Shown here: in pieces, positions 484 to 9,012 of the stretch | Position numbering within the stretch: position 1 is the stretch's first letter | How the letters are laid out: each line of letters opens with the position of its first letter | Assembly (NCBI GenBank): GCA_022969175.1 | Contig: JALJPB010000027.1 | Location: 1 to 50,713, forward strand | Origin: Colwellia sp. | GTDB taxonomy: Bacteria; Pseudomonadota; Gammaproteobacteria; Enterobacterales; Alteromonadaceae | Length of the DNA stretch: 50,713 bases | Direction: 5' to 3' | The notes under the pieces: model-generated | Told to the model about the DNA's origin: nothing | Databases searched by the model: none | Seen by the model: the letters and a program-made list of their open reading frames with translations, nothing else | Position numbers and translations under genes: made by a program

Positions 484-657
484 TAACTAACTTTTTTAAG
501 AGGTTAATCAGTAGTAAGCAGCATGATTTTTACTTTCGCTTATGCACAGTCGCCTATCAAGGCAGACAAAACCTTATAAATAATTAGTATTCATCACTTC
601 TTCTCAGTGATTAAAGTGAATCTTGAATTTACAGTCCAACCGTCTATTGTTGGAGCC

Positions 658-687
658 AAAGCAGCCCTCTAGTGGCTGCTTTTTTTA
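658..687 (+). terminator. Rho-independent terminator (GCAGCC...GGCTGC stem followed by T7)
   Basis: aaaGCAGCCctctagtGGCTGCttttttt read from the sequence. Confidence 0.5.
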
Positions 688-894
688 TATCAATTAAGGG
701 TCGTCTTTGTGATAGTAATGACGATTAACGCTATCTCGAAAAGAGGGTGTATGCCTCCGCAATGCGCACAAAGTGAACCTCTGCATTGCTGACAAAATCT
801 CAGAGATTATGGTTAAACACGTTTTTGTATAAAATTATATTTAACGGATGCCTGTTAAGAACAAACTAAGGTAATAAAGAGCAAGCTCACACTA

Positions 895-1242
895 TTACAA
901 TAAATCAAACTCTTCGATTGACCAAATAAGCGCAAACGTCAATGCAACAACAGCAACAGAAATTGGCGCGACCTGGATATGCTCAAAGATAGTTGCCCAT
1001 TGCATATCAATGATGGCTGGCTTTGCTATAGGAGCATCGGTAAATAATGCAAGCAGTACATTTATCGCTAAATAACCAAGTGAACATACAATTGCTGCTG
1101 AAAAAGCATAGATATACCAAGAGGTAGCTTGACCTTGTTGGTTAATTAACTGCATCGTTGACAGTGAGAAGTTATCATCATCCAGCTGCTCTTCAGTCAA
1201 TTGGTCTGTTAACCAGTCATCATTTAGAAAGTCATCTTTCAT
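895..1242 (-). CDS. Small two-TM membrane protein translationally coupled to the ECF sigma factor; putative anti-sigma factor
   Basis: 115 aa; ATGA start/stop overlap with the upstream sigma gene; acidic N-terminus followed by two hydrophobic segments. Confidence 0.4.
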   Translation of the reverse strand: MKDDFLNDDWLTDQLTEEQLDDDNFSLSTMQLINQQGQATSWYIYAFSAAIVCSLGYLAINVLLALFTDAPIAKPAIIDMQWATIFEHIQVAPISVAVVALTFALIWSIEEFDLL

Positions 1243-1772
1243 GAGTTTGCTCCTGTTTCACTTTGCTCCGCTAGAGTTTTTAGTTTTAATCTGCTGCGTC
1301 GAATTAATGATTTTACCGTGCCCAAAGGCATATTCATTACCTCTGTTATTTCTTGATGACTCAGTCCATGGCTAAAGTGTAGCAATAAAGTAGCTCGTTC
1401 TTCTGGTTTTAAATATTTTATTAGTACCTTCACTGTGCGCTGTGCGTCGAATTGATTTTCCAAGTTAATAGCGTCAGCAACATCTTCAATTTCGGCATTT
1501 GTTAACGCTTGTTTTTTGCGAGTATGGCTGACAAATAATTGATAAGCGATTTTAAACAGCCAAGATAAAAACTTACCCTCACCTCGGTAAGTTTTTATAT
1601 GTAGAAACGCTTTTAAAAATGTTTCTTGGGCAATGTCATCAGCGATAGCGTGCTCGTTTTGCAACAATCGCCTTAAAAACTGTCTTATTGGCGATTGGTT
1701 TAGTCTCATTAATTGCTCAAAAGCGTGGTGTTCGCCTGATTGCTGTACTCGCTCAATAAGGTTGGCTTCCAT
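1239..1772 (-). CDS. ECF (sigma-70 family group IV) RNA polymerase sigma factor, module A
   Basis: 177 aa; region-2-like ETFLKAF...YRGEGKFLSWLFKIA; region-4-like HTH LSHQEITEVMNMPLGTVKSLIRRSR. Confidence 0.85.
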   Translation of the reverse strand: MEANLIERVQQSGEHHAFEQLMRLNQSPIRQFLRRLLQNEHAIADDIAQETFLKAFLHIKTYRGEGKFLSWLFKIAYQLFVSHTRKKQALTNAEIEDVADAINLENQFDAQRTVKVLIKYLKPEERATLLLHFSHGLSHQEITEVMNMPLGTVKSLIRRSRLKLKTLAEQSETGANS

Positions 1773-1776
1773 CAGT

Positions 1777-2139
1777 TTACTTTTTTGCTGCTTTGAGTTT
1801 TGAAAAAGCCAAGTAAACTAAACCGATAATGATGGGTAAAAAACCAAAAATCCATGCGATACCACCAACTGGCATGAAGGTTAGTGTTAGTACAATGCCA
1901 GTGACTAGCAATAACATGCCTCTTCTAAAGTCACTTTGAGGTTGTTTTTTCATTACCAAATCTAGCGACTCTAACAGTTCAGGGGTGATTTCTTTTCCTG
2001 ACTCTACCAGTTTTTGTAGTGTTTCTTGCTTGGCCACTTTTGCGCGATTGATAAAAAATAACACGGCAATAATAATTAAAGTGCCACAAATTGCAGCAGT
2101 AATGCGCATGATAAAATCATAATAGGCTAGTTCGTTCAT
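1777..2139 (-). CDS. Small membrane protein (three TM segments) immediately upstream of the ECF sigma gene, 4-nt gap
   Basis: 120 aa; AAGGA RBS; architecture parallels ORF 6254..6679 of module B. Confidence 0.5.
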   Translation of the reverse strand: MNELAYYDFIMRITAAICGTLIIIAVLFFINRAKVAKQETLQKLVESGKEITPELLESLDLVMKKQPQSDFRRGMLLLVTGIVLTLTFMPVGGIAWIFGFLPIIIGLVYLAFSKLKAAKK

Positions 2140-2261
2140 AAAAAATTCCTTTAATACTTTGGTTATAATGGCTATAAGTTAAGTGATATATTAATAGAAC
2201 GCATCAATTGAGCTGTTGGATGCATTGAGGTGACATTTTATTTTTGTAAGTTATAGGCAAG

Positions 2262-3953
2262 CTACTTTTGTCTTAACCTTAGTACACCACTAAGCTGCTT
2301 TTCATAATAGGATAAATTACTGTCATTATTAGATTTTGCCAAACTTACCGCCTCGCTAAAACTATTTTTGGCTAAATTAAGTTGGCCACTTTCACGATAT
2401 GCATCGCCAAGACTGTCGTAAGCACTTGCTGAATATTGGTGGTTTTTTACATTCAACTCAAAACTATCTATCGCCTGTTGGTAGGCTTGATATTCTAAAA
2501 AGTCATAACCAATTTTGTTGAGCCAGCCTTTATTAGGGGTAGTATAAAGGCATAACATCTCTTGATAAAACTGCTCAGCGATGGCGAGTTTATTTTCAGA
2601 TAAATGCAGTTTGATAAACTCTTGGTATCCCCACTGGTTCATATTAACCTTATAACCTGCGCGCCTCGAAATTTCTTGATAATAAGCTTTAAGCCCTGCC
2701 AAGCCCCCATCAGCGTGAAAATCGTCCAAATCACCATTAACATTTGGTAATTTAATGTCACGCTTAAATTCATCTATCGCTACGTTATTTGCTGCCAAAT
2801 GCATATTCATGGTTAAACGAATATTACCAACAGGGGTAACATTGGCGAGATAAATTACCGTGGTGCCGTCGCCGTACATAGCAAGATTACTCGAATAGCC
2901 GTCTAAAGAGCCGCCATGACTGATCAGCTGAATACTTGGATTAAAACGGATCATAGTTTCATGATTGATATACCAGCCGTAGCCGTAGCCGCCAATATTT
3001 GGGCTAAACATTTTATCCGTCAGTGGTTTTGACAATAACTTATGACTTTTTAATGCTTTACTCCAGGTATATAGATCGTCAACAGTGGAATACATCCCGC
3101 CGGTAGTATAAGCGTTTGACAAGTCCCTATACTTGGCCAGTTTATACTCGCCTTTTTCGGAAGAAAATAGTTCACTAAAAAAGCCAATTTGTTTGAATTG
3201 ATAGCCTTTTGCAATATGTTGTTGGTGATATTTATTGTCAGCGTAGCCGGTATTTTTTAATGCTAAAGGTTTAGTAATATAAATATCGAGTAATTGTGCA
3301 AACGACTTCCCTGTTACCTGTTCTAAAATGGCACCGAGCAAAATGTAGTTTTGACTAGAATAATAAAACTCTGTGCCGGGTTCGTTAATCAACTCCATTT
3401 GGGCGATGAGCTTTACATAGGAATTTGGTGTGACTGACATCTTTCTAAATTCACTAGACTTAATGCCTAATCGACGCAGTCCCTCATAATGAGGAAGACC
3501 CGAGGTGTGTGACAATAATCTATGAATGGTTATTTTAGCTCCATTTTCTTTAGGGAAATAGGGCAGATAATCACTTACCGTCATTTCTAAATCAATGTTA
3601 CCCCGCTCTACTTGTTGCATAACCAACATCGCAGTAAATTGCTTGGTAACAGAGCCAATTAAAAACTTGGCATCTTCCACCAGGGGAATGTTGTTTTCTT
3701 TATCGTAAAAACCATAAGCTTTTTTTAATAAAATTTTATTGTCTTTTGCAACCAGCATCACACCGTTAAATGGGCTTTCAATACGGTTATGTTGGCCTTC
3801 TTGTGAATAGAGCTCCATTAATGCGTTTATGTTTTGAGTAAAACTAGATGCTGTAAATGGCAGTGTCAGCAATATAAAAAACATAAGCAGAGATAAAATA
3901 CCGCCTAACCGCCTAGTTAGTATTTGCTGGATTTTTGCTATTAATATATTCAT
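2262..3953 (-). CDS. Beta-lactamase-fold serine hydrolase (class C/PBP-like) with C-terminal TPR repeats, module A
   Basis: SVTKQFTA (S-x-x-K active-site motif), YSSQNY (class-C-like second element), HGG triad region, signal peptide; C-terminal about 150 aa with TPR-like repeats. Start re-set to the ATG at 3953 (GAGAGGA RBS) rather than 3968. Confidence 0.8.
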   Translation of the reverse strand: MNILIAKIQQILTRRLGGILSLLMFFILLTLPFTASSFTQNINALMELYSQEGQHNRIESPFNGVMLVAKDNKILLKKAYGFYDKENNIPLVEDAKFLIGSVTKQFTAMLVMQQVERGNIDLEMTVSDYLPYFPKENGAKITIHRLLSHTSGLPHYEGLRRLGIKSSEFRKMSVTPNSYVKLIAQMELINEPGTEFYYSSQNYILLGAILEQVTGKSFAQLLDIYITKPLALKNTGYADNKYHQQHIAKGYQFKQIGFFSELFSSEKGEYKLAKYRDLSNAYTTGGMYSTVDDLYTWSKALKSHKLLSKPLTDKMFSPNIGGYGYGWYINHETMIRFNPSIQLISHGGSLDGYSSNLAMYGDGTTVIYLANVTPVGNIRLTMNMHLAANNVAIDEFKRDIKLPNVNGDLDDFHADGGLAGLKAYYQEISRRAGYKVNMNQWGYQEFIKLHLSENKLAIAEQFYQEMLCLYTTPNKGWLNKIGYDFLEYQAYQQAIDSFELNVKNHQYSASAYDSLGDAYRESGQLNLAKNSFSEAVSLAKSNNDSNLSYYEKQLSGVLRLRQK

Positions 3954-4229
3954 GTTAATTCCTCTCATTTCAGTTATCGCTTTAGTTATGGCATGAGTTG
4001 TCTATAGACAAACACTTTAATAAATGAACGACTGGATTAGCGTTTTGGATTCAGGCAGAAGAAAATAAAAATCAATAAGGAAAAGCTAGATCCTTTAGCA
4101 ATTTACTTTGTTAGGGGATTTAGAGGTAAGCCATCAAAGGATGAGGTGTCTATGATAGTTGTGCTTTGGCTGATATTTAAAAACTTTAACGGTCAATGAA
4201 AAACAATGCAAAAAATTTTTACGTCAATA

Positions 4230-4259
4230 GGCAACCGATTTATCAGCCCTTCCGTCTAA
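4230..4259 (+). promoter_or_regulatory. ECF-type promoter motif GGCAACC-N16-CGTCTAA upstream of the module-B hydrolase gene
   Basis: AAC in the -35 and CGTC in the -10 is the hallmark of ECF promoters; near-identical copy at 6176..6205. Confidence 0.5.
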
Positions 4260-4485
4260 ACAACTTTAAGCTCGCCAAAAAACAGAAGTAATGTGATGAA
4301 ACACTTTTGATTTTTCTAAAAGTACTAGCCGCATTATCGCTGGTGATTAGAAAGTTCAACATACATCAGCGCAATTATTTAATTAACTTGGTTAGCGTGA
4401 TCAAGTAAACAAATGATGAGAATTTATCGGCCGATTTTCATTGTGCCGTGTGCAATATAACCAGAAACTAATTTGAGGAATACCA

Positions 4486-5973
4486 ATGAAACAAACAATA
4501 CGTCGACCAAAGTTAAGCTATTTACTGCCGATATTTTTATTGATTAGCACTTGCTCTAACATCGTAAGTGCCGACGAAAAAAAAGCATACTCAAAAGCGT
4601 CTGATGAACTATTAATGAATAAAACAGACGAAATTATTAAACAGTATACCGATCCAGGCTGGTTTTCTGGCAGCGTGGTGATATTTAAAGCAGACAAGGT
4701 TATTTATGATAAGAGCTTTGGTTTTGCTGATTTAGAGAACAAGGTAAAAAATACTTCTGCAACAAAAACCAGAATAGGCTCGATCAACAAACATTTTACT
4801 GCAACTTTGATAATGCAGAAAGTTCAGTCAGGAAAAATATCATTAGATGATACCTTAGCAAAATTCAAATTGGGTTTTCCACAAGACATTGCGGAAAAAA
4901 TTACGGTACGTCATTTACTTAAGCATACTTCAGGTTTTGCTGACATATTTAATAATGAATATTATAAAACATACCGCTCATTAAAAACCATCAATGACAA
5001 ACTACCGTTATTATTAAATAAGCCTTTAATTTCTGAACCAGGCGAGCAATACAACTATTCAAACTATGGTTATATTGTTTTAGGCGCAATTTTAGAAAAA
5101 CTTGAACAAAAGAGCTTTCAATTGATTATTAATGAAAACATTTTAAATGTTATTAAAGCTGACAATACTCAATACGCCTTGACTGAAAACGTTACAGATA
5201 AAGCGAAGAGTTATCAATTCACTCCTATGGGGACAAAAATAGATAGAACGAGCAGACTGGAAAATTTAACACCCGATGGCGGCATGTACTCCACACCTTA
5301 TGACCTGGCGCTTTTTTATTCCAAGCTTTTTTATAGCAACCAGCTACTCAACGACCAATCAAAAGCAATGATGAAAAATCATTACAAAAAATCAATCAAA
5401 CCTTGGTCTGAATTCTTGCACAGTGATAAGACTAAAGTGATTTCTTATGGTGGAGGGCCTGGAGTGAGTGCTGCTGTAGAAATATTAATTAAAGATAAAT
5501 TGATGGTGATAGCCTTAGCCAATACTGATGGCGTGGTAGCAGAGCGTATCACCCAGAGAGTGATTGAAGTTCATCAAGGCAAAGAATATAAAAAGGTCAT
5601 CTTGCCGCTAGGATTATTTGCAATGAAATTATTAGAGAAAAAAGGAGATGTTTATTTTGTCGATAATGCTAAACGTGAGTTCACCCAAGCAGGATATGAT
5701 GACTTTACAACACGACCTTTAAAATTTACTGCTAGACCTTTAAATAAATTAGGTTATGCACTAATTAATAATAATAAAATTGATCAAGCGATTAGTGTTT
5801 TTATTGTCAATAGCAAAATATTCCCACAAGACCCGAATACTTTTGACAGTTTGGCTGATGCCTATGAAAAAACAGGAAACAACAGCAAAGCTTTAGTGAA
5901 CTATCAACAAGCTCTTTTATTAGACTCAGATTTTGACTCCGCCAAGCAAGCTATCTTACGATTAAAGCAATGA
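4486..5973 (+). CDS. Beta-lactamase-fold serine hydrolase with C-terminal TPR repeats, module B (paralog of 2262..3953)
   Basis: 495 aa; SINKHFTA S-x-x-K motif, YSNYGY, signal peptide, C-terminal TPR-like region; GAGGAA RBS. Confidence 0.8.
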   Translation: MKQTIRRPKLSYLLPIFLLISTCSNIVSADEKKAYSKASDELLMNKTDEIIKQYTDPGWFSGSVVIFKADKVIYDKSFGFADLENKVKNTSATKTRIGSINKHFTATLIMQKVQSGKISLDDTLAKFKLGFPQDIAEKITVRHLLKHTSGFADIFNNEYYKTYRSLKTINDKLPLLLNKPLISEPGEQYNYSNYGYIVLGAILEKLEQKSFQLIINENILNVIKADNTQYALTENVTDKAKSYQFTPMGTKIDRTSRLENLTPDGGMYSTPYDLALFYSKLFYSNQLLNDQSKAMMKNHYKKSIKPWSEFLHSDKTKVISYGGGPGVSAAVEILIKDKLMVIALANTDGVVAERITQRVIEVHQGKEYKKVILPLGLFAMKLLEKKGDVYFVDNAKREFTQAGYDDFTTRPLKFTARPLNKLGYALINNNKIDQAISVFIVNSKIFPQDPNTFDSLADAYEKTGNNSKALVNYQQALLLDSDFDSAKQAILRLKQ

Positions 5974-6175
5974 TAGCCTTTAGGAGTATTATTTAGTCAC
6001 ATAGTCACTTACCCATCTAGAATTAAGGCATTAGCACAAACAATATTTGTTAAGTTCTCATGCCTTTACTTAGTGCCACAGGTCGATTTTTACTGACTTT
6101 CTATGGCCTAAGTAGATTTATTTAATATGGTGATTAACACTTTAGCAATAGAGTGAAAATATTTATGACTTATTA

Positions 6176-6205
6176 GGCAACCGGTTTATCAGCTGTTCCG
6201 TCTAA
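6176..6205 (+). promoter_or_regulatory. Second copy of the ECF-type promoter motif GGCAACC-N16-CGTCTAA, upstream of the membrane-protein/sigma pair
   Basis: 27 of 30 positions identical to 4230..4259; located about 50 nt upstream of the ATG at 6254. Confidence 0.5.
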
Positions 6206-6253
6206 TCTATTTTAAACTAAGCACAACTTACAAAACACAACTGGAGTAATAAT

Positions 6254-6679
6254 ATGGACACTGTTTTAATTTTTCTTATCTCGCTAATCGCTTTATGGCT
6301 GGTCATTAGAAGTATTAACATTCACCTTAAACAACAGAAGCTGGTTAAAGTCAGAGAGATGCTACATGCAGAGCGAGTAAAGAGCCTAGAAACTGATGCA
6401 GAACCGATTGATATTAATTTTGAAATGGAAACCATGGATCAGATGTTGAGTCAATCCGTTACCACCTCTGCAGCCTTTATGAGAATTTGGCACCAAGTAA
6501 GTTTTAGATTAGCTGTATTTTTTATCGCACTAAGTTTGATGGGCTTGACCTTTGTTTTGATTGCTCAAATAACACAGACTGAACTTAGATTTGGTATAGT
6601 TCGCATGGCCTTTGCGCCTTTATTTATTGGTATTCCACTGTTGCTGACTAACTTAATCAGTAATAGGTATTCAAAATAA
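6254..6679 (+). CDS. Small membrane protein preceding the ECF sigma factor (module B); possible sigma-regulatory partner
   Basis: 141 aa; three to four TM segments; stop is 1 nt before the sigma ATG; GGAG RBS. Confidence 0.5.
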   Translation: MDTVLIFLISLIALWLVIRSINIHLKQQKLVKVREMLHAERVKSLETDAEPIDINFEMETMDQMLSQSVTTSAAFMRIWHQVSFRLAVFFIALSLMGLTFVLIAQITQTELRFGIVRMAFAPLFIGIPLLLTNLISNRYSK

Positions 6680-6680
6680 T

Positions 6681-7244
6681 ATGTCTGGGAATGTCGAACA
6701 GGACGCTGATGAGCTATTAGTCGCCGGGTTTCTTGAATCAGGTAATAATGATACTTTCTCACGACTGCTAAAGCGTCATCAATCATCGATAAAGAGCATT
6801 GTTATTGCCACTCTTGGTGTCCATTTTCGCAGTGAGGTTGATGATGCTTGTCAGGAAATCTCTATTAAGCTCTATGAAAGGGCTAAGAGTTACACCGGAA
6901 AAAGTAAGTTTAGCACTTGGTTATATCGCTTGGTAAAAAATTCAGCAATAGATTATCAGCGTAAGCATAAACGTCATCTTGCAACCCAAGCGTACGAGGA
7001 TGAGGAAATGATTGACTGGAAGACGTCCAATGAACAAATAAGTGGCGCTGTTAACCAGTCGATTAATGAATTTGTAGAGCAACTACCACTGCAATACCGA
7101 ACGGTAATTTATATGTACTACTGGCAGGGGAATACAACACTGGAAGTATCAAAACACTTGTTAATTACCCAAGGAACGATCAAAGGTTATTTGCACCGGG
7201 TTAGAAAACAAATTGCAATCATCATCGAAGATAGTGAATTATAG
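6681..7244 (+). CDS. ECF sigma factor, module B
   Basis: 187 aa; KSKFSTWLYRLVKNSAIDYQRK (region 2.x) and C-terminal HTH VSKHLLITQGTIKGYLHRVRKQ. Confidence 0.85.
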   Translation: MSGNVEQDADELLVAGFLESGNNDTFSRLLKRHQSSIKSIVIATLGVHFRSEVDDACQEISIKLYERAKSYTGKSKFSTWLYRLVKNSAIDYQRKHKRHLATQAYEDEEMIDWKTSNEQISGAVNQSINEFVEQLPLQYRTVIYMYYWQGNTTLEVSKHLLITQGTIKGYLHRVRKQIAIIIEDSEL

Positions 7245-7722
7245 TTGGTCATCCGCTTTTAGCGAAATTAAGCCAGTTAAATTAAGAAGTTAATGATTTT
7301 ACCAATGAGGTATAGCAAAGTTAGACTTTCAATAATGAACAGAGAGACCCATAACCTTGGAGATTTTCTTTTAGATTCGTCATAGGTTTTTGGCATTGTA
7401 TCAGTCCGTTGAATTGTCTTTCCTGTACAAATTATAGTCAAATTTACGATTTATGCTATTTTAACTAAATAAAACAACCTATAACGAAAGAAATTAGCGG
7501 CATAAATTGGACAGAATACCGATAAAGTGTCAATTGATTAGCAAACAACTTTCCCTATTGGTGTTTATATCAATGTTTAATAAAAAAGCTCAGTCAGTAA
7601 TTATAAATTTATACCATTATAGCGGACATATTCAAATTCTTACTGACCACCGTAGCTAAATGAAACGATATACCACTGCAAAATAACAGCGGCATGAGCG
7701 AAACTTTTACTTTTGATTAAAG

Positions 7723-9012
7723 TTATTTAGCTAGGCTAGTAAATAACTTTTCAAAAGCGTCTAAACCTTCATTGGCAATTTCATCACTGATGGTTAGCGC
7801 TGGTAGAAAACGAATAACATTACCGTAAAAACCACAGGATAATAAAATCAAACCATATTCAGCGGCTTTACCAATGACCGCTTGCGTAAGTTCCGTATTG
7901 GCATTTTCACTATCACCGTCTTTCATTAACTCAATAGCAATCATTGAACCTTGATTACGGACATCAGAAATTAGTTGTGGATACTGGCTTTGCAGTGCGG
8001 TTAAACGTTCGTTAAACAATGAGCCAATGTGATTGGAACGTTCAATGAGGTTTTCTTCTTCAATAACTTCTAATACGGCAAGGGCCGCAGCACAAGCAAC
8101 AGGAGAACCACCATAAGTGCCACCTAAGCCGCCAGGTAATGGTGCGTCCATTATTCCACTTTTTCCGACAACGGCTGAAATTGGGAAACCACCAGCAATG
8201 CCTTTCGCCATGGTCATAATATCGGCTTCAACACCTGAGTGCTCGAAGCTGAACATTTTACCGGTACGGCCAAAACCTGTTTGAATTTCATCGGCGATTA
8301 GTACAATGCCATGTTCATCACATAGTTCACGTAGCGCTTGTAAAAATTCTGTTGGCGCTGCATAGAAGCCGCCTTCGCCTTGTACGGGTTCAACAATAAT
8401 GGCTGCAACATCTGAAGGGGCAATATCGACTTTAAATAAATTCTGTACGGCAGTGATTGCATCTTTCACGGAAATATTATGTTGCTCAATGGGGAACGGG
8501 GCATGAAAAATATCACCAGGGAATGGGCCAAATAAGTTTTTATATGGCGTGATTTTCCCCGTTAGCGCCATGGTTAAATTGGTACGACCGTGGAAACCTC
8601 CATTAAAGGCAATAACACCACGACGACCGGTATGTGCTCGTGCAATTTTCACACAGTTTTCAACCGCTTCTGCGCCTGTTGAAACAAAAATAGCTTTTTT
8701 CTCACTAGTACCTGGCGCAAGGGCCGTTAGTTTTTCAGCAAGCTCTACTGCGACTTCATATGGATTAACCATTACACAGGTATGACTGAATTTATCGACT
8801 TGTGCTTTTACTGCAGCAACAACTTTTGGGTGGCTATGGCCAGTATTACAAACGGCAATCCCGGTGCCAAAATCAATATAACGATTGCCTTCAACATCCC
8901 AAAGTTCAGACCCTTTGGCATGATCGGCATACACAGGATAAATATTGCCTTGACCACGAGCGATCACTTTAGTTTTACGAGCTTGTAATTGTGCATTAGT
9001 TGATTGAATCAT
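7723..9012 (-). CDS. gabT: 4-aminobutyrate--2-oxoglutarate aminotransferase (class III PLP aminotransferase)
   Basis: 429 aa; near full-length resemblance to GabT, including the VIARGQG N-terminus and the PLP-lysine region. Confidence 0.9.
   Translation of the reverse strand: MIQSTNAQLQARKTKVIARGQGNIYPVYADHAKGSELWDVEGNRYIDFGTGIAVCNTGHSHPKVVAAVKAQVDKFSHTCVMVNPYEVAVELAEKLTALAPGTSEKKAIFVSTGAEAVENCVKIARAHTGRRGVIAFNGGFHGRTNLTMALTGKITPYKNLFGPFPGDIFHAPFPIEQHNISVKDAITAVQNLFKVDIAPSDVAAIIVEPVQGEGGFYAAPTEFLQALRELCDEHGIVLIADEIQTGFGRTGKMFSFEHSGVEADIMTMAKGIAGGFPISAVVGKSGIMDAPLPGGLGGTYGGSPVACAAALAVLEVIEEENLIERSNHIGSLFNERLTALQSQYPQLISDVRNQGSMIAIELMKDGDSENANTELTQAVIGKAAEYGLILLSCGFYGNVIRFLPALTISDEIANEGLDAFEKLFTSLAK

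Follow-up and report, generated by a model that had tools for sequence, protein, structure and literature searches.

A 50,713-nucleotide (nt) stretch of DNA, hereafter the window, comes from a metagenome scaffold of Colwellia sp. (ENA ERZ23488814 scaffold_42) and has a G+C content of 37%. Two gene sets lie back to back in it, one on the minus strand from 3953 to 895 (module A) and one on the plus strand from 4486 to 7244 (module B). Both had been outlined in a preliminary description of this DNA, and their genes are confirmed by the open reading frames (ORFs) and by Pfam. Each set encodes a serine hydrolase, a small membrane protein and a sigma factor of the extracytoplasmic function (ECF) type. 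As described, each hydrolase has a signal peptide and a TPR domain at its C-terminus, Pfam placing both in PF00144, and module A contains a translationally coupled gene, the start of ORF115 overlapping the sigA stop codon (ATGA). The present analysis concerns the predicted promoters of the two modules, the relationship between the modules and the likely roles of their products. The features are listed below by position (TM, transmembrane segment; aa, amino acids).

895-1242, minus strand: ORF115, a two-TM protein in ATGA overlap with the sigA stop; candidate anti-sigma factor, DUF5056-like.
1239-1772, minus strand: sigA, an ECF sigma factor of 177 aa with sigma-2 and sigma-4 domains.
1777-2139, minus strand: membA, a three-TM DUF6249 protein that reaches the Pfam gathering threshold (44.6 bits; cut-off 33).
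2196-2224, minus strand: P_membA, a predicted sigA-type promoter, TGCATCC-N15-GCGTTCT, preceding DUF6249-sigA.
2262-3953, minus strand: hydA, a secreted S12/PF00144 serine hydrolase with TPR (Pfam PF00144, E 1e-57).
4025-4053, minus strand: P_hydA, a predicted sigA-type promoter, TGAATCC-N15-TCGTTCA.
4230-4259, plus strand: P_hydB, a predicted sigB-type ECF promoter with a GGCAACC -35 and a CGTCTAA -10 element.
4267-4450, plus strand: leader insert, 184 lineage-specific nt in the hydB leader, with a decayed membB start in its 5' part.
4486-5973, plus strand: hydB, a secreted S12/PF00144 serine hydrolase with a C-terminal TPR (Pfam E 7e-46).
6176-6205, plus strand: P_membB, a second predicted sigB-type ECF promoter, which would drive membB-sigB (autoregulation).
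6254-6679, plus strand: membB, a three-TM protein of 141 aa, probably a very divergent DUF6249 relative; candidate sigB regulator.
6681-7244, plus strand: sigB, an ECF sigma factor of 187 aa with Pfam sigma-2 and sigma-4 domains.

The central observation is a repeated motif. The 50.7-kb window contains exactly two copies of GGCAACC-N16-CGTCTAA, one at 4230 and one at 6176, and the coordinates of the two 30-mers given in the preliminary description (4230-4259 and 6176-6205) are exact. Likewise, GGCAACCG.TTTATCAGC is found in the window at these two positions only (0.12 matches expected by chance), and CAACC-N14-17-CCGTCTAA has two window matches for 0.00 expected. With up to three mismatches allowed, the 18-mer matches the window twice only, a count of at least two being reached in 0 of 100 shuffles. 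Relaxing the motif to three mismatches adds window sites at chance level only, and no further credible site for either of the promoter motifs discussed here was found in the window. The repeated promoter motif at 4230 and 6176 is confirmed as an observation. It had been presented as common to both modules; instead, it belongs to module B alone, and module A has a different one.

The module B motif was compared across six loci that carry the hydB-membB-sigB trio: the window, Colwellia sp. 12G3 (L164), Litorilituus lipolyticus (L004) and three metagenome contigs (L166, L167 and L168). Each of the five other Colwelliaceae genomes contains exactly two copies, at the same orthologous places; in 6/6 sigB-carrying genomes, the motif precedes both hydB and membB-sigB. 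The membB-side copy lies 65-78 nt 5' of the membB ATG. The hydB-side copy lies 64-107 nt 5' of the hydB ATG in the five other genomes, as compared to 256 nt in the window, where the leader is lengthened by the insert. None of the 12 promoters departs from GGCAAC and CGTCTAA or from the set distance between the two; their spacers and flanks vary. Conservation is partial for a T-tract near -45 and for a TTTAA soon after the -10 element, and the TTTAA is kept immediately 3' of the -10 element in nearly all 12 sequences. Invariant -35 and -10 elements between drifting spacers and flanks argue for an ECF promoter footprint rather than a repeat. Hence, the comparison supports the motif at 4230 and 6176 as an ECF promoter linked to sigB, and the ECF-promoter reading first proposed for it is borne out by these 12 predicted promoters in 6 genomes. 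In addition, sigB has the putative autoregulatory promoter expected of an ECF sigma factor, GGCAAC-N17-CGTC being present in 6/6 genomes. A dispersed repeat (of the repetitive extragenic palindrome or miniature inverted-repeat transposable element kind) was rejected, with two copies per genome at constant orthologous sites and none in 1.74 Mb elsewhere. Indeed, the strict motifs of modules A and B have zero matches in 1.74 Mb of unrelated ECF loci, and neither has an off-target match in ~190 kb of related loci. The search for further copies that had been suggested, covering the window as well as related and unrelated loci, returned only the orthologous pairs and no generic repeat.

The similarity between the two window copies runs far past the 30 nt originally assigned to it. 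Both copies are real, but the insert together with P_hydB aligns with 6156-6324 over 169 nt (69% identity, E 2e-14, blastn), and the alignment reaches into the membB coding start. The insert (4267-4450) is placed between P_hydB and the normal hydB leader, has no counterpart in L166, the closest relative, and encodes a frameshifted LLIFLKVLAALSLVIRKFNIH with 15/23 identity to membB residues 2-24 (tblastn). Judged from these alignments, part of the membB start was copied here and has since decayed; the copy is specific to the lineage of the window, and some of the likeness between the two window copies is lineage-specific. The repeated 30-mer might then be no more than the by-product of an event within this genome (gene conversion or a recent segmental duplication), devoid of regulatory meaning. 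This would fit the 169-nt similarity, which extends in the window into the decayed membB 5' end within an insert absent from the closest relative, and the close resemblance of the P1 and P2 spacers within one genome, seen in the window and in L166. However, the five other genomes, which lack the insert, keep both promoters with invariant -35 and -10 elements in an otherwise diverged sequence, and a duplication accounts for the extra similarity in the window, not for the existence of the second promoter. We consider such a by-product very unlikely.

The insert brings the hydB leader of the window to 256 nt. A riboswitch or attenuator in this long leader was dropped because RNA folding gave no significant structure (z -0.99); the Rfam scan of the window also found nothing. 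The small ORF of the insert (TTG start, ~33 aa) was rejected as a leader peptide, as it has no Shine-Dalgarno sequence, is frameshifted with respect to a nearby ATG and is absent in the closest relative. On the membB side, a 12-nt insertion (cttacaaaacac) is present in the leader of the window (6206-6253) and of L166 (7525-7572) as compared with L164, L004 and L167.

The bipartite motif could also be the operator of a different regulator, or be read by another ECF sigma factor such as RpoE. A CGTCTAA or TCTAA -10 element and an AAC -35 element are common to many ECF groups, and the link of the motif to sigB is sequence-based. Against another reader, the motif is present wherever sigB is present (6/6) and absent at hydB orthologues found without sigB. 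It is also strand-specific, it is located 60-80 nt 5' of start codons, and one copy occupies the usual autoregulatory position before the sigma operon. Overall, reading by sigB is preferred and another reader appears improbable.

Aliikangiella coralliicola (L174) provides a hydB orthologue of this kind, 75% identical, in a locus devoid of membB, sigB and the motif. The orthologue is encoded directly 3' of genes for an NtrC-type response regulator and a histidine kinase (2922-5640 in L174), and a sigma-54-type TGGCATGACATTTGCT is positioned 33 nt 5' of its ATG (L174:5950-5970). It appears that hydB has been re-wired from ECF control, as in Colwelliaceae, to sigma-54 control in Aliikangiella. 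The presence of the orthologue behind a sigma-54-like promoter, without sigB or its motif, suggests that the hydrolase is a regulated output. The Shine-Dalgarno region of the Aliikangiella orthologue is nearly identical to that of hydB in the window. A Kordiimonas homologue of the hydrolase (53%) stands alone.

For module A, comparison of the regions 5' of the DUF6249 gene and of hydA among six sigA loci (the window, L166, L170, L171, L172 from Thalassotalea fusca, and L173) yielded the pattern TG[AC]ATC[CT]-N15-[GT]C[GA]TTC[TA]. Its only window matches, 2196-2224 and 4025-4053, are both on the minus strand, for 0.04 matches expected. The ~190 kb of related loci contain 8 matches, all at the expected places and on the expected strands, including sites 5' of hydA in L170 and L171; as the pattern was drawn from the same sequences, these counts are partly circular. 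The match in L173 is out-of-sample, all others coming from the pattern-defining sequences. In that locus (5288-5638), a clean internal deletion of hydA has fused ~70 nt of its 5' end to ~100 nt of its 3' end. The scar keeps the hydA-type promoter (5307), 330 nt 5' of DUF6249-sigA, and this is the sole sigA-type promoter there. The -35 element reads consistently TGAATC at hydA-proximal promoters and TGCATC at DUF6249-proximal ones (window, L166 and L170-L173).

The predicted sigA promoter combines a variant -35 element, G(A/C)ATC, with a -10 element, C(G/A)TTC, and its geometry equals that of the sigB promoter: both types show 17 nt from xAxC (-35) to CGT (-10), that is xAxC-N17-CGT. They differ by AAC versus ATC and by CGTCTAA versus CGTTCT. 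Such differing discriminating bases make two insulated specificities likely, and the sigA and sigB circuits are likely insulated from each other.

Taken together, we favour, at a probability of roughly 0.7, a locus in which two independent ECF modules stand head to head, differ in promoter specificity and have the hydrolases as outputs. Each sigma gene has a predicted ECF-type promoter 5' of it that is specific to its module, with the same signature found again before the hydrolase gene next to it. In module B, the sigB holoenzyme would recognise GGCAAC(C)-N16-CGTCTAA; the copy at 6176 would direct membB-sigB transcription, resulting in positive autoregulation, and the copy at 4230 would direct transcription of hydB. 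In module A, sigA would recognise TG(A/C)ATC(C/T)-N15-(G/T)C(G/A)TTC, in the copies located before hydA and before DUF6249-sigA-ORF115. The small membrane proteins may hold the two sigma factors in an inactive state until a cue is received at the membrane or in the periplasm. This restraint may be exerted by ORF115 (DUF5056-like) and the DUF6249 protein in module A and by membB alone in module B. The hydrolases, in turn, would act on peptides that contain D-amino acids or derive from peptidoglycan. The earlier proposal that the sigma factor drives both its own operon and the hydrolase gene is supported for the sigB motif by co-occurrence, but one shared, duplicated circuit is not.

The back-to-back layout had been ascribed to a mirror-image duplication, with alignment of the two hydrolases and of the two sigma factors as a check. 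Full-length identity is 28% between hydA and hydB; sigA and sigB are 23% identical. Both values are below those reached with outside relatives: sigA shows ~49% identity to Acidobacteriota ECF sigma factors and hydB 44-47% to Bacteroidota PF00144-TPR proteins. For sigB, 42 close homologues were found (71-100% identity), those with names belonging to Colwellia and Litorilituus, and its nearest relatives outside Colwelliaceae are ECF sigma factors of other phyla (27-33%). Genome and metagenome scans with the sigB alignment returned almost only distant ECF sigma factors (25-33%) and one useful locus, L004; tblastn detected no homologue of the hydrolases or membrane proteins in the 159 loci of these scans. 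Both sigA and sigB contain PF04542 and PF08281 and no other domains, as ECF (group 4) sigma factors do, and both score above the TIGR02937 cut-off. L164, L004, L167 and L168 contain module B without module A, and L170-L173 module A without module B. Only the window and L166, which lacks hydA, have both side by side. The low identities, the closer outside relatives and the separate occurrence indicate that the layout is a local juxtaposition of two representatives of the same broad type of cassette, as judged by sequence, and not a recent duplication; at most, modules A and B share an ancient origin.

If a hydrolase-membrane-sigma circuit had undergone one local inverted duplication, followed by divergence, this would explain why gene order and hydrolase architecture agree throughout, down to the C-terminal TPR and the ...LRLKQ tail, why membB is remotely linked to DUF6249, the family of membA, and why the xAxC-N17-CGT geometry is common to both promoter types. 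Such an origin is difficult to reconcile with identities of 28% and 23%, with membrane proteins that have no direct match, with components closer to relatives outside the genome and with modules that are single in most related genomes; the identity ranking already points to sigA/sigB and hydA/hydB as non-sister pairs. Such an event is quite unlikely in our opinion.

The active-site motifs of the hydrolases correspond in part to those listed in the preliminary description. SxxK is conserved in both, as SVTK in hydA and SINK in hydB, with their orthologues, and the second motif of hydB is YSN, of the listed Y-x-N type. In contrast, hydA has YSS at this position, and its orthologues keep it. The third motif is YGG in hydB and HGG in hydA. 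The closest relatives in the PDB are Pab87, the Streptomyces R61 DD-peptidase, Flp, the alkaline D-peptidase and FmtA. In NCBIfam, AmpH, PBP4B and D-aminopeptidase match best, each far under its equivalog cut-off: AmpH is not reached (92.7 and 75.4 bits; cut-off 266), nor is bla_class_C (57.5 and 56.2 bits; cut-off 415). Calling hydA and hydB beta-lactamases is unjustified, their class C scores lying far under the cut-offs. They are best described, from their sequences, as secreted S12-type peptidase-like proteins. The hydA reading frame extends open to 3968, and a GAGG stands 8 nt 5' of the ATG at 3953.

The gene hydA is found in 3/6 module A loci, being absent from L166, L172 and L173 while DUF6249-sigA-ORF115 stays intact. 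The hydrolases are therefore probably regulated outputs rather than obligate parts of the switch, that of module A being dispensable. The presence of hydA is polymorphic even among near relatives: the ~1.96 kb of hydA and its promoter (window 2225-4183) correspond to ~130 unrelated nt in L166 (5600-5729). A further possibility is that the hydrolase-TPR protein is a periplasmic sensor, relaying ligand binding to the membrane protein in the way of a penicillin-binding protein, and not merely an output. There is a precedent in PbpP, a penicillin-binding-fold protein that senses for the sigma-P ECF pathway in Bacillus thuringiensis (PMC8092216). The TPR tail suggests protein-protein contact, and the catalytic motifs depart from the canonical ones (YSS in hydA, YGG in hydB). 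Conversely, half of the module A loci have an intact DUF6249-sigA-ORF115 set but no hydA, hydB orthologues occur without sigB or membB and under other regulators, and membB would have almost no periplasmic exposure according to its topology as read from sequence. A sensor role is thus rather unlikely, and a role as output is preferred.

As to the membrane proteins, membB has no direct match in Pfam, and BLAST detects no similarity between membA and membB. An exhaustive phmmer search found only 5 membB relatives among 1.84e9 representative proteins. Three distant ones (28-34% identity) match DUF6249, and one of them, P0285, passes the threshold with 33.2 bits. When the membB profile with these distant intermediates is compared to the module A DUF6249 alignment, hhalign gives a probability of 69% (E 4e-5); the shallow comparison to DUF6249 without the intermediates gives 0.3%. 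The membB profile also matches the DUF6249 protein of L006 (E 7.5e-6), encoded 5' of a sigB-like ECF sigma factor in a Thermoanaerobaculia metagenome-assembled genome. membB is probably a very divergent DUF6249 protein. Both membA and membB are predicted to consist of an N-terminal TM, a basic loop of 40-60 residues on the cytoplasmic side and a C-terminal TM hairpin. The loop of membB, predicted to be cytoplasmic, has 60 residues and is highly conserved (NIHLKQQKLVKVREMLHAERVKSLE...).

The positions of these genes are constant. membB lies 1-2 nt 5' of sigB in 6/6 loci, and in 6/6 module A loci a DUF6249 gene is located 5' of sigA and ORF115 overlaps sigA at +1. DUF6249 is also the most frequent family 5' of distant sigB-like ECF sigma factors (4/51). 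In one Verrucomicrobia and one Bacteroidetes locus (L033 and L046), a Pfam-significant DUF6249 gene 5' and a DUF5056 gene (~116 aa) 3' surround a sigB-like ECF gene, and these DUF5056 proteins match ORF115 in position and size. ORF115 itself has no DUF5056 score; its Thalassotalea homologue alone matches DUF5056, weakly (E 0.0027). In B. fragilis, DUF6249 and DUF5056 have been listed as sigma factor neighbours near clsB, with no function assigned (bioRxiv 10.1101/2025.05.12.653583). The literature mentions found for these families are limited to this neighbourhood and to P. gingivalis PG1662, neither with a function. As a tentative and rather doubtful extension, DUF6249-type three-TM proteins could form an unrecognised class of ECF regulators, in which membB would replace a downstream anti-sigma factor, sequester sigB directly and sense an intramembrane signal.

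Several points weigh against two independent, self-regulating modules with hydrolase outputs. The assignment of motifs to sigma factors comes from co-occurrence, and the sigB motif resembles generic ECF or RpoE-type promoters (AAC...CGTCTAA), so that another ECF sigma factor could read it. The genomes scanned are partial, and distant regulon members are possible. The module A motif was counted in the sequences it was derived from, except for the L173 match, and its -35 element has no canonical AAC. A canonical anti-sigma gene is missing 3' of sigB, a region that contains no ORF of at least 60 aa, and membB has no similarity to known anti-sigma domains in Pfam; a regulatory role for membB is a guess. 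Finally, the third S12 motif of hydB (YGG) has no H or K and hydA has YSS, so catalytic competence is not assured.

Among known systems, the modules resemble autoregulated ECF/anti-sigma modules such as RpoE-RseA and B. subtilis SigW, SigM and SigX: a small sigma factor with sigma-2 and sigma-4 only, a promoter with AAC near -35 and CGT near -10 before its own operon and a few envelope targets, and membrane proteins co-transcribed with the sigma gene. Unlike in these systems, a three-TM DUF6249-type protein is encoded 5' of the sigma gene, module B has no recognisable downstream anti-sigma factor, Pfam detects no zf-HC2, RskA or similar domain, and no NCBIfam equivalog threshold is reached. 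The gene order of module A is identical to that of the DUF6249-ECF-DUF5056 cassettes of Bacteroidota and Verrucomicrobia. However, ORF115 lacks a DUF5056 score, module B lacks a third gene and has a highly divergent DUF6249-like protein, and a PF00144-TPR hydrolase is not among the parts of these cassettes. In the Bacillus cereus group, the sigma-P/RsiP/PbpP system has an ECF sigma factor that drives its own operon and penicillin-binding or beta-lactamase-fold genes (PMC6686233, PMC8092216, PMC8791391). The predicted promoters on a sigma operon and on a hydrolase-fold gene are similar here, but the hydrolases are S12 peptidase-like (relatives of AmpH, R61 and Pab87) and far under class C cut-offs, no RsiP-like protein is detected by Pfam, and the host is Gram-negative. 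In B. subtilis, regulation of SigY (ECF31) by YxlCD needs more than one small membrane protein (PMC7826278). SigY is the best NCBIfam equivalog match of sigA, yet with 108 bits for a cut-off of 194; moreover, yxlC and yxlD are both 3' of sigY, and the promoter is different. The main text of the ECF reclassification paper makes no mention of lactamase, serine hydrolase or penicillin.

The modules are an ordinary kind of bacterial stress circuit with uncharacterised membrane partners, and current understanding of ECF signalling is not overturned. New here are a second type of promoter, the decayed fragment of membB, the link to DUF6249 and the re-wired regulation of hydB. Two putatively orthogonal ECF sigma/promoter pairs, supported by comparison and 180 nt apart, may be useful as insulated parts for synthetic circuits. 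The DUF6249-ECF-DUF5056 cassettes, widespread but unstudied, now have predicted promoter signatures. The same hydrolase gene follows an ECF-type promoter in Colwelliaceae and a sigma-54-like one in Aliikangiella, which suggests a stress-inducible envelope function.

A scan of 600-7800 for sigma-70 promoters and terminators performed no better than on shuffled sequences. The 478-nt gap 3' of sigB (7245-7722) contains no ORF of at least 60 aa; gene calling places small non-homologous ORFs, of 65 and 107 aa, in the same position in L167 and L168. A decayed module B is present in L169 (7440-8400), where sequence resembling an insertion sequence or transposase takes the place of hydB and of most of membB; the ~25 last codons of membB are left, and sigB is split into ORFs of 126 aa and 34 aa.

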